From: Myxococcota bacterium | GTDB lineage: Bacteria > Myxococcota_A > Polyangia > Polyangiales > Sandaracinaceae | Assembly (NCBI GenBank): GCA_036149055.1 | Contig: JAYZQJ010000248.1 | Span: forward strand, 1-64,000 | Length of the DNA stretch: 64,000 nucleotides | Reading direction: 5' to 3' | Shown: piece by piece, positions 60,858 to 64,000 of the stretch | How the letters are laid out: each line of letters starts with the position of its first letter | How positions within the stretch are numbered: position 1 is the first letter of the stretch | Made by a program: the position numbers and the translations under genes | Notes under the pieces: generated by a model | The model's database searches: none | What the model was told of the DNA's origin: nothing | What the model saw: the letters and a program-made list of their open reading frames with translations, nothing else

Positions 60858-62123
60858 ATGACCGACACCACCCGCGCGGGCGAGATCGACGACAGCGACG
60901 TCTCGCAGCTCATCTACGACTGGAACTCCAAGCGCTACCGCGGCCCGGTGATCGCCAACCGCGCGTTCGAGCTGCACGACGAGACGCTCCGCGACGGCAT
61001 CCAGAACCCGTCGGTGGTGGACCCCGAGATCGACGACAAGCTCGAGATCCTGCACATGCTCGAGGAGATCGGCGTCGACACCATCGACGTGGGCCTCCCC
61101 GGCGCCGGTCAGCGCGCGTTCAACGACGTGCTCCGGCTCTGCCGCGAGATCGCGGACCAGAAGATGAGCATCCGCCCGACCTGCGCCGGCCGCACCCTGG
61201 TGCAGGACATCGCGCCGATGGTCGAGGTGAGCCAGCGCGCCGGGATCCCGATCGAGGTGATGACCTTCATCGGCTCCTCGCCGATCCGCGGGCTGGCCGA
61301 GGACTGGTCGGTGGAGCTCATCCGCCGCCGCTCGGTCGAGGCCATCGCGTTCGGCGTGAAGGAGGGTCTGCCGGTCAACTACGTCACCGAGGACACCACC
61401 CGCTCGCGCCCCGACGTGCTCTGGGAGCTGTTCCGGGCCGCCATCGACGCCGGCGCGTCGCGCCTGACCCTCTGCGACACCGTGGGCCACGTGACCCCCG
61501 ACGGCGTGCGCAACCTGGTCCAGTTCACCCGCCACCTCATCGACGCCTCCGGGGCCGAGGTGGGCATCGACTGGCACGGCCACAACGACCGCGGCCTCGG
61601 CGTGGTGAACGCGATCTGGGCGCTCGAGTACGGCGCGCACCGCACGCACGGCACGATCCTCGGCATCGGCGAGCGGGTGGGCAACGCGTCGCTCGACCAG
61701 ATCCTCGTGAACCTGAAGCTGCTCGGCGTGCTCGGCGACCGCGACCTGACGAAGCTCTCCGCCCTCTGCGAGAAGGTCTCGACCGCGACCGAGTTCCCGA
61801 TCCCGATCAGCTACCCGGTGTTCGGCGAGGACGCCTTCCGCACCGGCACCGGCGTGCACGCGGCCGCGATCATCAAGGCGATGGAGAAGGGCGACGCCTT
61901 CCTCGCCGACCACGTCTACTCGGGCGTGCCGGCGGGTGACTTCGGCCGCGAGCAGGAGATCGGCATCGGCCCGATGAGCGGCATCAGCAACGTCCGCTAC
62001 TGGTGCCGCAAGCGCGACATCGAGCCCACCGAGGCGATCACGAAGGCGATCCTCGGCAAGGCCAAGGAGAGCAAGCGCCTGATGACCGACGCGGAGATCC
62101 ACGCGGTCATCGAGCAGAGCTGA
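60858..62123 (+). CDS. LeuA-family (DRE-TIM) Claisen-type synthase, short form
   Basis: DETLRDGIQ, CDTVG, HGHNDRG, GIGERVGN; 421 aa with no regulatory domain. Confidence 0.88.
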   Translation: MTDTTRAGEIDDSDVSQLIYDWNSKRYRGPVIANRAFELHDETLRDGIQNPSVVDPEIDDKLEILHMLEEIGVDTIDVGLPGAGQRAFNDVLRLCREIADQKMSIRPTCAGRTLVQDIAPMVEVSQRAGIPIEVMTFIGSSPIRGLAEDWSVELIRRRSVEAIAFGVKEGLPVNYVTEDTTRSRPDVLWELFRAAIDAGASRLTLCDTVGHVTPDGVRNLVQFTRHLIDASGAEVGIDWHGHNDRGLGVVNAIWALEYGAHRTHGTILGIGERVGNASLDQILVNLKLLGVLGDRDLTKLSALCEKVSTATEFPIPISYPVFGEDAFRTGTGVHAAAIIKAMEKGDAFLADHVYSGVPAGDFGREQEIGIGPMSGISNVRYWCRKRDIEPTEAITKAILGKAKESKRLMTDAEIHAVIEQS

Positions 62124-62532
62124 GCGGGCGCGCGACGGGCCAGTGGCTCAGCGCGATCAGCGCCCCGTCCGGATCGCGGACGTAGAGGGAGAAGTCGGAC
62201 TCGCGCTCGACCGGGTACCCGGCGGCCTCGAGCCGGCTCCTCCAGCGTTCCCTGTCGAGTGAGTCGATCTGCATCGCGAGGCAGTGCAAGCCGGCCTCGT
62301 GATCGTGGCGTGTGGCCTCACCGGGCGCTTCCTCCACGGCCAGGAATGCACGCTCCTCGTCGGCGGAGTCACCGAACGCGAGCCACACCGATCGGAGGCT
62401 CCCATCTTCGCGGTGCCACCGGCGCAGCTCCTCGAGCCCGAGCGCGTCGCGATAGAATTCCAGCGCTCCTGGGAGATGTTGTACGCACACGGCGACGTGG
62501 TGCACGCGACCGGCCCGCATCGTTCCGCTCAT
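62107..62532 (-). CDS. VOC/glyoxalase family protein
   Basis: HHVAV, FYRDALGL, SLYVRDPDG; AAGGAG upstream of ATG 62532. Confidence 0.85.
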   Translation of the reverse strand: MSGTMRAGRVHHVAVCVQHLPGALEFYRDALGLEELRRWHREDGSLRSVWLAFGDSADEERAFLAVEEAPGEATRHDHEAGLHCLAMQIDSLDRERWRSRLEAAGYPVERESDFSLYVRDPDGALIALSHWPVARPLSSAR

Positions 62533-62547
62533 GGGCTCCTTTCGGAT

Positions 62548-62567
62548 CTGCAAGCCGTCGCTTTCAG
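62548..62567. promoter_or_regulatory. Candidate enhancer (bEBP) site 1
   Basis: CTGCAAG-ccgtcg-CTTTCAG; matches site 2 at 63280. Confidence 0.55.
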
Positions 62568-62636
62568 GGGTGGGACGGATCGAGGGCAGACCGCGACCAG
62601 GGTCGCACGATCGGGCGAGGATCGGGGCCCCGAGCG

Positions 62637-62654
62637 TTGGCACGCAGCTCGCTA
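62637..62654 (+). promoter_or_regulatory. Sigma-54 (-24/-12) promoter 1
   Basis: TTGGCACG-cagc-TCGCTA, GG-N10-GC. Confidence 0.8.
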
Positions 62655-62663
62655 AGGTTCGGG

Positions 62664-62778
62664 GCAGGCATGACACCACGGCGGGCGATTGCCCCCCCGA
62701 CCGCCTGCCAAAGTCATGTCGGTCTTTCACGACCCCGGCGCAACTCCCCCCCAGCGCCGGGGTCGTGTGCTAATTTTT
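62664..62778 (+). ncRNA. Candidate sRNA 1 with two C-rich-loop hairpins
   Basis: Stem 62667-62720 with C6 loop; 14-bp hairpin 62728-62767 with loop AACUCCCCCCCA; then uaauuuuu. Confidence 0.7.
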
Positions 62779-62911
62779 GCTGGAGGGTTTGGGGCAAACC
62801 CTCCCCCCATGGGGCGGAGCGCCCATGGGGCCCCCCTCCCGACTCCGTCGGCGCCTCGCGCGCTTCGCGCGCTGGCGCCGCGTACCCCGGCGACGGGGCG
62901 CCGGGGGCCCT

Positions 62912-63209
62912 GCGGCTCGCGCTCGCGCTGTGCGCTCGCTGGCCGCCTTTCACCGGTTCGCCACCCCGCTCGGCGGCTCCCGCTCGCGCTTTGCGCTCGC
63001 TGGCCGCCTCTCACCGATTCGCCACGGCTGCCGCCCGCGGCTCCCGCTCGCGCTTTGCGCTCGCTGGCCGCCTCTCACCGATTCGCCACGGCTGCCGCCG
63101 GCGGCTCCCGCTCGCGCTTTGCGCTCGCTGGCCGCCTCTCACCGATTCGCCACGGCTGCCGCCGGCGGCTCCCCGCTTCGCGCTCTGCGCTCGCTCGCCG
63201 CTTCACCGA
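62912..63209. repeat. 64-bp tandem repeat, about 4.7 copies
   Basis: Units at 62912, 62973, 63037, 63101 and 63165 of gcggctcccgctcgcgctttgcgctcgctggccgcctctcaccgattcgccac... Confidence 0.9.
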
Positions 63210-63279
63210 GCTGGCGTGCTGGGGGTCTCCAGGGCGGGATCTCCAGGGCGGGATCACTGGTGGGAGATTGACTTCCATT

Positions 63280-63299
63280 CTGAAAGAGGGCGCTTTCAA
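63280..63299. promoter_or_regulatory. Candidate enhancer (bEBP) site 2
   Basis: CTGAAAG-agggcg-CTTTCAA inside a longer ccatt...aatgg palindrome. Confidence 0.6.
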
Positions 63300-63359
63300 G
63301 AATGGAGGAGATGATGGGTGTCATGGGGGCGGATCGGCTTCGATCAGGCGATCTCGGGG

Positions 63360-63377
63360 TTGGCACGGGTGTCGCTA
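63360..63377 (+). promoter_or_regulatory. Sigma-54 (-24/-12) promoter 2
   Basis: TTGGCACG-ggtg-TCGCTA, GG-N10-GC. Confidence 0.8.
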
Positions 63378-63386
63378 CTAGGGTGA

Positions 63387-63498
63387 GTGACATGGCGAAT
63401 CGGCTGGCGACGTAGCCCCCCCCTGTTGCTCGCCCGCCATGTCTATCTTCGGCGGCCTCGGTGCGACTCCCCCCCAACGCATCGAGGCCGCCTTCTTT
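63387..63498 (+). ncRNA. Candidate sRNA 2, paralog of sRNA 1
   Basis: Stem 63389-63443 with C7 loop; 15-bp hairpin 63451-63492 with loop ACUCCCCCCCAA; then uucuuu. Confidence 0.7.
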
Positions 63499-63557
63499 CC
63501 GTCCGTCCATGGGTTTGACGGTTCTCGCGCGGAGGCCGAGACTCGGCACCGCGAGGT

Positions 63558-64000
63558 GTGGGTTTGGGGTCTCGAACCGTTCTGATCTTGCTCGGGCTCG
63601 GGCTGGCCGGCTGCGGGGGCGAGGTGGTGGAGGAGTCGGCGCCGGCCGCGCCTCCGGTGCGCCTGGACGACGTGGTGTCGACCGAGCGGGTGCCGCACGC
63701 GGCGGGCACGGCCGAGCTGGAGCCGCTCCGGCGCGCGACGCTGTCGGTGGAGGCGCCCGGGCGGGTGGTGGCCATCGACATGGAGCGCGGGCAGCGGGTG
63801 GAGGCGGGCGACGTCCTGGTCCGCCTCGACGTGGGGCGCACCGCGGTGGCCACGGCGGCGGCGGCCGCGAACGTGACCCAGGCCGAGGCCGCGCTCGCTC
63901 AGGCGGAGCGGGAGCGGGGGCTGGCCGAGCGGCTGGTGGAGAGCGGGAGCGCGTCGGCGCGCTCGCTCGATCAGGCGCGAGACGCGCAGTCGCTGGCCGA
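63558..64000 (+). CDS. RND efflux periplasmic adaptor lipoprotein, truncated by the window end
   Basis: Manual translation: lipobox LAGC, PGRVVAIDMERGQRVEAGDVLVRLD, then an alpha-hairpin. Start 63558 or 63564. Confidence 0.85.
   Translation, partial: MGLGSRTVLILLGLGLAGCGGEVVEESAPAAPPVRLDDVVSTERVPHAAGTAELEPLRRATLSVEAPGRVVAIDMERGQRVEAGDVLVRLDVGRTAVATAAAAANVTQAEAALAQAERERGLAERLVESGSASARSLDQARDAQSLA

Follow-up and report, generated by a model that had tools for sequence, protein, structure and literature searches.

Two paralogous genes for putative sigma-54-dependent small RNAs with C-rich loops in a Sandaracinaceae bacterium and their probable distant relationship to Pxr

The window (the whole stretch of 64,000 nucleotides of contig JAYZQJ010000248.1 that was analysed, from a Myxococcota bacterium of the family Sandaracinaceae) carries two related units at 62638–62779 (copy a) and 63361–63500 (copy b), both on the + strand and 723 bp apart. 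The predicted small RNA of copy a (62664–62779, +, about 116 nt) takes its 5′ end from the promoter geometry and its 3′ end from the U tail, and that of copy b (63387–63500, +, about 114 nt) has two predicted ends. Hairpin 1 of copy a (62667–62720, +) consists of an outer helix (62667–62674 with 62713–62720) and an inner helix (62680–62687 with 62702–62709), and its loop displays a C7 run at 62692–62698; in copy b (63389–63443, +) the outer helix (63389–63397 with 63435–63443) and the inner helices (63402–63412 with 63424–63434) present a C8 run at 63416–63423. In both folds a 7-nt pyrimidine-rich linker leads to hairpin 2, which in copy a (62728–62779, +) is terminator-like, with 14 bp (62728–62741 with 62754–62767), the loop AACUCCCCCCCA at 62742–62753 and the tail UGCUAAUUUUUG, and in copy b (63451–63500, +) has 15 bp (63451–63465 with 63478–63492), the loop ACUCCCCCCCAA at 63466–63477 and the tail UUCUUUCC. 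The loop string ACTCCCCCCCA is common to both copies (62743–62753 and 63466–63476). The units, their positions, promoters and shared loop were all found where an earlier note, made from the letters of this DNA, had put them, and folding reproduced the long C-loop hairpin (C7/C8), the pyrimidine linker and the 14/15-bp hairpin that it had described. Its U-rich tails hold for copy a (UAAUUUUUG), whereas the tail of copy b is weak and U-poor (CUUCUUUCC).

The + strand folds reach −59.9 kcal/mol for copy a and −60.2 kcal/mol for copy b (z of −5.8 and −7.4, with none of 200 shuffles matching either energy), and the reverse strands give z values of −2.8 and −5.2. The statement of the earlier note that the stems differ almost completely between the copies was too strong: they share about 63% identity (75 matching columns in 119 nt), and compensatory pairs between the two amount to 5 of 28. 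The strong covariation described below comes from the wider family and not from the comparison of copy a with copy b. Single short motifs are not rare, with 1.7 and 1.0 matches to the promoter and the shared loop, respectively, expected in the window at up to one mismatch; the 9.9-Mb genome has exactly two occurrences of the joint pattern of promoter, N70–120 and CTCCCCCC, and none of its reversed control.

The promoter of copy a (62638–62653, +, TGGCACGCAGCTCGCT) reads TGGCAC-N5-TCGCT, with GG and GC 12 bp apart, and that of copy b (63361–63376, +, TGGCACGGGTGTCGCT) has the same form, so that TGGCACG-N4-TCGCT stands about 11 nt 5′ of each RNA of about 115 nt. Linkage of RNA and promoter is general, the element TGGCA[CT]-N5-xxGC being kept at a fixed distance in 32 of the 32 homologues examined, as expected if the RNAs are transcribed from a sigma-54 promoter; the genome holds one rpoN (sigma-54) gene. 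Further upstream lies a putative enhancer, which in copy a (62540–62568, +, TTTCGGATCTGCAAGCCGTCGCTTTCAGG) contains the dyad CTGCAA-N8-TTTCAG, ending 71 bp before TGGCAC, and in copy b (63275–63305, +) is the palindrome CCATTCTGAAAG-AGGGCG-CTTTCAAGAATGG, whose dyad ends 62 bp before TGGCAC and which recurs 5′ of the second copy in a genome of the same genus (G001). The enhancer motif is conserved 5′ of most family members, at 51, 60–63, 71–73 or 83 bp from the promoter, a spacing with increments of roughly one helical turn. A stricter form of the string has four occurrences in the 9.9 Mb, three of them preceding sRNA copies, and GATCTG[AC]AA-N5-9-TT[TG]CA has a single match in the genome, at 62545, 5′ of copy a. 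A regular expression combining dyad and promoter returned three matches in the genome (none for the control), namely the two window copies and a site directly after a sigma-54 activator gene on another contig, C118.

Between 62770 and 63380 no ORF has a third-position GC above 0.8, and none there makes a credible coding frame; a 351-aa ORF at 62259–63311 has no Pfam match. The spacing of 723 bp is explained by the insertion between the copies of a dispersed repeat of about 167 bp (62781–62947, with 174 blastn matches in the genome) and of 64-bp tandem repeats; in G001 the pair is about 250 bp apart. Nine loci, including relatives in other genera and families, occupy a syntenic site behind an HMGL-like gene.

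A covariance model built from copies a and b (R1) found relatives in 10 of 61 genomes. The model R2 recognises four copies in the genome of the window (copy a at 105.8 bits, copy b at 111.1 bits), in keeping with the multicopy family foreseen by the earlier note, and has matches in 14 of the 32 genomes of the family Sandaracinaceae and in 15 of 151 genomes of the order, across three families, with four to five dispersed copies per genome. The family member whose genome consists of one contig carries a copy at G003:C1:9817963-9818072. R2 detected nothing in 151 genomes of the class nor in 151 of the phylum outside the order, a null that bounds the Sandaracinaceae-type subfamily alone and not the superfamily, since even Pxr receives only some 20 bits from this model. 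The matching loci are assigned to Sandaracinaceae, Polyangiales and Polyangia, a lineage outside Cystobacterineae, as had been supposed. In the alignment of 20 sequences fitted to the covariance model, 97.1% of the cells pair and 23 of the 28 pairs show double changes, a level reached by none of 500 shuffles, and slid controls pair in 29–47% of the cells. Within the family, compensatory changes affect 5 of 8 pairs of helix 1 and 6 of 7 pairs of helix 2 in hairpin 1, and 12 of 13 pairs in hairpin 2; an independent run of MAFFT and RNAalifold on 28 sequences predicted 19 pairs, 15 of which show compensatory changes. The structured, covarying homologues in Sandaracinaceae and other Polyangiales bear out the selection on RNA structure that the earlier note had suggested. 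Altogether, the two units are very probably real sigma-54-driven sRNA genes.

Two pattern searches covered 401 genomes of the phylum. The combination of promoter, C7 and GCGGYC matched 12 genomes, mostly Polyangiales; two of its matches in one other genus (L088 and L089) are recognised by neither R2 nor Rfam. The combination of enhancer and promoter matched nine genomes, and none of the five matches lying beyond the known family loci (four outside the order, and L096 of genome G145 inside it) has a C-loop RNA downstream.

In one seawater metatranscriptome run, 42% of the sampled words were present, and contigs of this RNA library cover 62300–62802 (depth 7.35) and 63221–63434 (depth 3.64). These contigs also span the promoter and the neighbouring gene, and for this reason they attest presence in an RNA library and not a discrete sRNA; no transcript with defined ends was seen among them. 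A very high depth at 62781–62951 in the same library belongs to the dispersed repeat.

Among the regulatory sRNAs of myxobacteria only Pxr has been studied; in Myxococcus it gates the development of fruiting bodies by negative control. With the Rfam model of Pxr (RF01812), copy b scores 12.6 bits (E 3.6, 141-nt search) against a threshold of 80, and copy a has no match at E ≤ 10; no other Rfam family reaches its threshold with the window copies either. Pxr loci were located in metagenome contigs by a degenerate motif, and ten of them score 111–129 bits with the Rfam Pxr model. When R2 was run with filters off on these ten confirmed loci, its best match was pxr itself, on the right strand and over the full length, in all ten, which are close kin and do not make independent counts; pxr scored 17.5–26.6 bits, with E values between 7e-4 and 0.036, while no further match exceeded 13 bits. 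In a search of 88 kb, eight of eight Pxr loci were scored, and two unrelated stretches also reached this range, with 20.3 and 17.6 bits.

A closer inspection of the Pxr loci revealed several features in common with the window family. A sigma-54 promoter, TGGCA[CT]-N5-xTGC, precedes pxr in 10 of the 10 loci, in line with the published promoter type (PMC5684412), and GATCTG[AC]AA-N-TT[TG]CA, the enhancer string of copy a, lies about 95 bp 5′ of the promoter in 5 of the 10 pxr genes, again not an independent count; the string GATCTG[AC]AA-N5-9-TT[TG]CA could be the PxrR site. The RNAs are of similar length (about 110 nt), with a C7 loop in the first hairpin (C7 also stands in the Rfam consensus and in all ten loci) and a GC-rich terminal hairpin whose 3′ arm and tail in copy b, GCCGCCUUCUUU, equal a string at the 3′ end of Pxr. 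The alignment blocks common to both are GAC..GAA..GGCUG, the C7 loop and GCCGCCUUCUUU, and the base of the terminal hairpin with its tail reads GCGGCC...GGCCGCCUUCUUU in both; a conserved 8-bp segment is published for the SL3 stem of Pxr, with which this base may coincide. The earlier note had located the critical C-run of Pxr in its last loop; according to PMC5684412, the C-rich loop essential for function is that of the first stem-loop, SL1. The arrangement of the window pair also has a parallel in Cystobacter, where PMC5568312 describes tandem paralogues, each under its own sigma-54 promoter.

There are also differences. Pxr was published with three stem-loops (SL1–SL3), whereas the window family has two hairpins, in the first of which an inner helix follows an outer one. 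In the R2 alignment, this outer helix corresponds to the 5′ stretch of Pxr that precedes the start of the Rfam model and to the SL2 region, with 7 of its 8 pairs formed in most loci and all 8 in one (L107), so that the two- and three-stem architectures may be reconcilable. The second loop of the window family is C7, while its counterpart in Pxr, ACUCCC, is paired into the longer SL3 stem. Unlike pxr, which stands directly behind pxrR (nla19), the window copies are not linked to an activator gene, and their family is multicopy and dispersed (4–5 per genome). It is found in Polyangiales, outside the range given for Pxr in PMC5568312 and PMC11928866.

The gene upstream of pxr encodes a REC-AAA+-HTH_8 protein. 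For seven of seven queries, the best match of this pxr-adjacent activator in the genome of the window is G000:C118:11935-13284 (51–53% identity), with 328–407 bits as against at most 318 bits at any other place; the assignment as an orthologue comes from a one-way search, with Pxr-side queries against this genome. The C-terminal HTH of the C118 gene ranks first of 65 and shares the identical stretch TTLWRKMKR with the pxr activator, and the enhancer-plus-promoter module recurs directly after this gene. The sigma-54 activator domain gives 65 matches in the genome, and position alone could therefore not name an activator. In none of the 33 loci inspected does an activator gene (PF00158) lie within 1.5–2 kb, and the nearest PF00158 match on the contig of the window, a weak one, is at 76001, about 12.5 kb away. 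The PxrR-like gene lies on a separate contig, C118. Of the 32 genomes of the family, 29 have the activator orthologue, some of them from genera in which the sRNA was not detected, and 14 have the sRNA; co-occurrence consequently gives no discrimination, and the two do not vary together. The enhancer-plus-promoter pattern is absent from four genomes of the two genera that lack the sRNA.

The earlier note had left the choice between a remote Pxr homologue and an analogue, and the full-length matches of R2 on pxr, the enhancer string and the activator match favour remote homology: the RNAs of the window are probably homologous with Pxr, and the activator module with that of PxrR. The multicopy family, which is found in Sandaracinaceae and also in some Polyangiales outside them, most likely represents a distant branch of the Pxr family that occurs in Myxococcaceae. 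In the explanation that we find best overall, and rather likely as a whole, the window holds two paralogous, self-contained genes for trans-acting small RNAs of about 115 nt, each laid out as a dyad CTG[AC]AA-N7-8-TT[TG]CA, a sigma-54 promoter 62–71 bp on and two hairpins. Transcription would probably be switched on by the PxrR (Nla19) orthologue on C118, an NtrC-type response regulator, which, once bound to the enhancer, would activate sigma-54 RNA polymerase. The two-helix hairpin 1 would present a C7–C8 loop, the counterpart of the essential SL1 loop of Pxr, and the terminator-like hairpin 2 a second C7 loop. These exposed loops, above all the first, would most likely pair with G-rich stretches such as Shine-Dalgarno regions and lower the translation or stability of the target mRNAs, a mode of action that we consider somewhat better than an even guess.

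The most serious alternative, to which we give a modest chance, is convergence: the sigma-54 C-loop sRNAs of Polyangiales would resemble Pxr by design and have an independent origin, and the common enhancer would only mean that related NtrC-type activators recognise similar dyads. The design does recur. The 6C RNA of Actinobacteria (RF01066; 28.3 bits for copy a and 21.4 for copy b, threshold 47) and the Streptomyces RNA Scr3202 (RF02833; 23.7 bits, threshold 52) fall short of their thresholds and, like the window family, have two hairpins with C-rich loops; Actinobacteria are not known to have sigma-54, and this likeness is one of design, not descent. The alphaproteobacterial ar14 (RF02344) gives copy a its best Rfam score (30 bits, threshold 58.8) and no match on copy b at E ≤ 10, and CcsR1 (RF02791) gives 9.8 bits against 65.3. 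Both share with the window family hairpin loops bearing C-rich motifs of anti-Shine-Dalgarno type, often in several copies, while their loop motif is CCUCCUCCC and not C7, and they belong to a different promoter type and a different phylum. Against the window copies, C-loop RNAs of unrelated phyla score as high or higher, and RNA-level likeness alone cannot separate homology from convergence. The 12.6 bits, or nothing, of the Rfam Pxr model, the different number of stem-loops and the absence of linkage to the activator gene all suit convergence, as does the placement of the origin of pxr within Cystobacterineae in PMC5568312 and PMC11928866; nothing contradicting that origin was found in the literature on Pxr or small RNAs in Sorangium or Sandaracinus. 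Set against this are the full-length top match of R2 on pxr in 10 of 10 (closely related) loci, an enhancer string of about 20 nt that is unique in 9.9 Mb and also precedes 5 of the 10 pxr genes, the clear best match of the activator with its identical recognition stretch, the same module directly behind the C118 gene, and the identical 3′ arm and tail GCCGCCUUCUUU. The regulatory logic of an NtrC-family activator and sigma-54 driving several paralogous or modular sRNAs is known from Qrr1–5 of Vibrio and NrsZ of Pseudomonas, with which Rfam scans of the window copies showed no likeness in sequence or structure; Qrr depends on Hfq, whereas hfq is absent from M. xanthus according to PMC5684412.

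It is less probable that copy b is a sigma-54-driven 5′ leader or attenuator, with hairpin 2 as a conditional terminator, of the RND efflux operon beginning at 63558. The same strand carries, about 58 nt downstream of copy b, the start of the HlyD-type adaptor gene and then a 1072-aa ORF, an HlyD gene follows the second copy in four loci (L003, L008, L011 and L013), and the tail of copy b is U-poor; yet relatives stand in many other settings, several of them with a convergent gene downstream (L020, L021 and L015), the U tails of copy a and of most relatives are good, and conservation extends over the whole unit, which ends at hairpin 2. Moreover, the complementarity of the loops to the HlyD start does not exceed that to random sequence, their duplex energies being matched by 8–35% of 3000 random windows; a duplex computed for the whole molecule was discarded, as it ignores internal structure.

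Slightly less probable still, the RNAs might titrate a protein that binds C-rich loops and pair with no mRNA. Multivalent binding of this kind would fit molecules that each carry two nearly invariant C7 loops and are encoded in several copies, and no preferred mRNA site emerged from the duplexes at the HlyD start or from G6AG sites at the Shine-Dalgarno position before long ORFs (33 of 581, a rate like that of control motifs). By contrast, the studied C-loop sRNAs 6C and RoxS/RsaE pair with G-rich mRNA sites, and no protein binding C-loops is known or conserved beside the sRNA genes. According to PMC5684412 and PMC11928866, M. xanthus lacks hfq and the targets of Pxr remained unknown or tentative, which would fit titration, while the latter, a 2025 paper, proposes pxrA mRNA as a binding target of Pxr, which would not. 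Finally, it is highly improbable that the units lack an RNA function and represent copies of a dispersed DNA repeat, or two GC-rich palindromes that arose by chance: true dispersed repeats do fill the local intergenic DNA, yet the units number only four, each with its own enhancer and sigma-54 promoter, their stems change by compensatory substitutions around fixed loops, and relatives hold the syntenic site behind the HMGL-like gene, so that covariation and promoter linkage contradict a repeat unlinked to the promoter.

Pxr is a textbook case of sRNA control of multicellular development and of recent sRNA birth. If the distant-branch reading is true, the origin of Pxr moves much deeper than Cystobacterineae, a testable consensus for the DNA site of the activator becomes available, and the family provides natural variants (two C-loops, several copies, no activator linkage) for studying how C-loops find their targets; the Rfam Pxr model would then be too narrow to find its own distant kin. 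On balance, we lean slightly towards a Pxr/PxrR module that predates the split of Myxococcia and Polyangia and that multiplied in Sandaracinaceae as dispersed paralogues with two C-loops, a reduced C7-loop hairpin being kept behind the activator gene. Should the module be that ancient, the published 5′ end and SL2 of Pxr may hide an outer helix common to the window family, and the ancestral job of Pxr would have been other than gating fruiting of the Myxococcus type.

The region 62548..63500 had been described in the earlier note as carrying two sigma-54-driven small RNA genes, and the sequence bears this out, with promoters, C-rich loops and the shared loop motif all in place. The promoter of copy a (TGGCACGCAGCTCGCT, 62638-62653, + strand) and that of copy b (TGGCACGGGTGTCGCT, 63361-63376, + strand) each carry GG and GC at sigma-54 spacing, and the loop motif ACTCCCCCCCA occurs at 62743-62753 and 63466-63476 (+ strand). 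Taken singly, neither the promoter motif nor the loop motif is rare; the joint pattern has exactly two matches in the 9.9-Mb genome of origin, against none for the reversed control. Folded from assumed 5' ends at 62664 (copy a) and 63387 (copy b), the + strands adopt a common structure in which an outer helix surrounds an inner helix with a C7 loop in copy a (62692-62698) and a C8 loop in copy b (63416-63423), followed by a 7-nt linker, a second hairpin of 14 bp or 15 bp with the shared C7 loop, and a tail. The folding energies of -59.9 and -60.2 kcal/mol (z -5.8 and -7.4) were reached by none of 200 shuffles, and no credible coding frame was found across the two RNAs. Identity between the copies is about 63%, with just 5/28 pairs compensatory from one to the other; the statement that their stems differ almost completely was therefore too strong.

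A scan against Rfam returned no family at threshold for either copy. The top matches were other C-loop RNAs, all sub-threshold: ar14 (30 bits, threshold 58.8), 6C (28.3, threshold 47) and Scr3202 (23.7, threshold 52). The model of Pxr, the Myxococcus xanthus small RNA (RF01812, threshold 80), gave 12.6 bits for copy b and no match for copy a, and the window RNAs are therefore not Pxr by Rfam's definition.

A covariance model built from copies a and b (R1) found a third copy in the genome of origin and matches in 10/61 related genomes. A second model (R2), built from 20 matches, recognized four copies in the genome of origin, namely the window pair, C259:67-186(-) and C182:112355-112466(-). The search of Myxococcota that the earlier note had proposed gave R2 matches in 14/32 genomes of the family Sandaracinaceae and in 15/151 of the order Polyangiales, spread across three families (one matching genome, the unpublished G023, is included in these tallies and no result hinges on it); outside the order, under strict filters, none was found in 151 genomes of the class or in 151 of the phylum. 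A pattern scan of named genome records yielded 34 stretches, with titles mostly of Sandaracinaceae, Polyangiales, Polyangiaceae, Polyangia, Myxococcales or Deltaproteobacteria MAGs, and R2 confirmed 27 of the 33 searched (L063 was excluded because it overlaps L050). In the R2-fitted alignment, biased as it is towards its own structure, 97.1% of cells pair and 23/28 pairs show double changes, a level reached by 0/500 shuffles, while in slid controls the paired fraction of cells is only 29-47%. The test was therefore repeated with MAFFT and RNAalifold on 28 sequences, where 15/19 predicted pairs showed compensatory changes. The loops are C-rich throughout the alignment, and tandem pairs also occur in G001 (twice), G002, G010, G017 and G018. 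UUUCCGUC(C/G) lies directly 3' of the second hairpin in about a third of the homologues printed (counted by eye), including window copy b (63497-63508), copies c and d of the same genome, G002a, G017a/b, G018a/b, G022a and G003.

Two other kinds of element were noted apart from these. Another family of the order (G543, L082:1500-1593) has a one-hairpin variant, in which a lone hairpin, with C8 in its loop and a U tail behind it, comes after TGGCACGGAAGTCGCT; the R2 match covers only the first half of the model (20.7 bits). In genus g207, of another class of the phylum, TGGCAC-N5-TTGCT precedes a short RNA-like segment in which C7 occurs twice (L088 and L089), conserved between two species and recognized by neither R2 nor Rfam, which may be yet another sigma-54 C-run RNA.

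The promoter TGGCA[CT]-N5-xxGC stands at a fixed distance 5' of the RNA in 32/32 homologues extracted. On the 5' side of the promoter a dyad is also conserved, CTG[AC]AA-N7-8-TT[TG]CA, preceded by TTTCGGAT in first-type copies and placed 51, 60-63, 71-73 or 83 bp from TGGCAC, in steps of about one helical turn; a dyad so phased fits the expectation for the enhancer of a sigma-54 activator. In its strict form, T[TC]CGGATCTG[AC]A, the string has four matches in the genome of origin, three of them before sRNA copies. The fourth, TTTCGGATCTGAA at C137:111626, has no sigma-54 promoter within 140 nt and precedes what we take to be a queA-like start (MDTDELDYDLPESL). Copy b carries a palindrome, CCATTCTGAAAG-N6-CTTTCAAGAATGG (63275-63305), with an identical one at the second copy of G001. 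A single sigma-54 gene is present in the genome of origin, where the sigma-54 activator domain has 65 matches. A weak, atypical match to this domain (139 bits, 364-aa frame) was seen on the same contig beyond the window, at C248:76001-76447, 12.5 kb downstream of the sRNA pair.

The pair is preceded by an HMGL-like gene (60858-62123, + strand) and a glyoxalase-fold gene (62107-62532, - strand) and followed by a HlyD-type adaptor gene (start 63558) and a 1072-aa ORF. The HMGL-like gene lies 5' of the sRNA in nine loci from several genera, and the HlyD gene 3' of the second copy in four. The 723-bp spacing of the window copies results from a dispersed repeat of about 167 bp and 64-bp tandem repeats. 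The former (62781-62947), directly 3' of the copy a terminator, contains internal hairpins, matches the genome at 174 places by blastn, many of them at the ends of contigs, and reaches very high depth in two metatranscriptome runs (many short contigs, 90-99% likeness). About four of the latter follow (62940-63200), themselves dispersed (236 matches).

Passages of PMC5568312 and PMC11928866 (2025) place the origin of pxr within Cystobacterineae, and a full-text literature search turned up no Pxr-like RNA described from Sorangium, Sandaracinus or allied groups. In the Pxr consensus of the Rfam alignment the first hairpin presents a C7 loop and the terminal one ends in GCCGCCUUCUUUU, and a direct comparison was therefore made. 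Scanning metagenome contigs with a degenerate motif from this consensus gave 22 loci; ten of the first 20 were Pxr at 111-129 bits, all close kin, so that counts over them are not independent. With filters off, the top R2 match was pxr, on the right strand and at full length, in 10/10 of these loci (17.5-26.6 bits, E 7e-4 to 0.036; runner-up at most 13 bits). When 88 kb were searched, family loci among them, 8/8 Pxr loci scored, as did two unrelated stretches (20.3 and 17.6 bits), and the RNA-level evidence is thus consistent but not overwhelming. In the alignment the family and Pxr have in common 5' GAC...GAA...GGCUG, the C7 loop, and the base of the terminator with the tail, whereas the second C7 loop of the family (ACUCCCCCCCA) has as its counterpart in Pxr an ACUCCC that is base-paired to a G-run within a longer SL3.

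In 10/10 Pxr loci the first base of the Rfam model is 40 nt downstream of a sigma-54 promoter, which predicts a primary transcript about 13 nt longer at its 5' end than the model. The extra bases (GGGACACAUCG) can pair with the SL2 region, which would give an outer helix comparable to helix 1 of the Sandaracinaceae RNAs. R2 aligns the family outer helix to these bases and to the region drawn as SL2, with 7/8 pairs in most loci and 8/8 in L107, where substitutions convert a mismatch into a pair. The stretch was seen in L106, L107, L110, L113, L114, L117, L119, L121, L124 and L125.

About 95 bp before the promoter, 5/10 Pxr loci carry GATCTG[AC]AA-N-TT[TG]CA, and this pattern has its sole match in the genome of origin (9.9 Mb) at position 62545, 5' of copy a. 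On its upstream side pxr is flanked by a gene for a REC-AAA+-HTH_8 activator, for which 7/7 queries, in a one-way test of orthology, had their best match in that genome at C118:11935-13284 (51-53% identity, 328-407 bits; elsewhere at most 318 bits). The C-terminal HTH of the C118 protein ranks first of 65, with TTLWRKMKR identical to the pxr-side activator. A dyad-plus-promoter pattern has three matches in the genome, the two window copies and a spot right after the C118 gene (control 0). At this last spot (C118:13285-13480, L128:6285-6480) the sigma-54-like AGGCACGCCGGTTGCT stands 61 bp downstream of a TTTCA/TGAAA dyad, and after it come a C-rich leader that lacks a Shine-Dalgarno sequence and then a receiver-only response-regulator gene; the element holds the position of pxr behind pxrR in Myxococcus, a layout kept in G001. 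In two other genera of the family (G003, L130:1522-1640; G015, L133:1540-1640), the activator orthologue is followed by a sigma-54-like promoter, a long hairpin whose loop carries C7 (fold z -2.5 and -2.4; R2 only 9.6-14.2 bits) and then a receiver-only gene; this hairpin may be the positional counterpart of pxr, and the genus of G015 is without an R2-detected sRNA.

According to passages of PMC5684412, the SL1 loop is required for Pxr function, a C-to-A change at its fifth base inactivating the RNA, accumulation requires SL3 and pxr is regulated by pxrR; a likely target is pxrA mRNA (passages of PMC11928866). By analogy and likely homology with Pxr, the first C-loop of the family would act as a seed that pairs with G-rich sites in mRNAs. 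CUCC, which is complementary to GGAG, is present in the second loop. No mRNA target was found: the loop match to the neighbouring HlyD start was no better than random windows, and G6AG sites before starts were not enriched. The region is present at low depth in one metatranscriptome run (contigs 62300-62802 and 63221-63434); these contigs, which include promoter and neighbouring gene, are no proof of a discrete sRNA.

Against homology with Pxr stand the failed Rfam threshold, the modest R2 scores, the different stem-loop count and the unlinked activator gene (none within 1.5-2 kb of the sRNA at any of 33 loci). The activator orthologue, present in 29/32 family genomes (74-96% identity), also occurs in genera where R2 and the enhancer pattern find no sRNA. 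As judged from sequence, copies a and b are a real, unannotated pair of predicted sigma-54 sRNA genes, and their Polyangiales family is most plausibly a distant branch of Pxr that has been rearranged.
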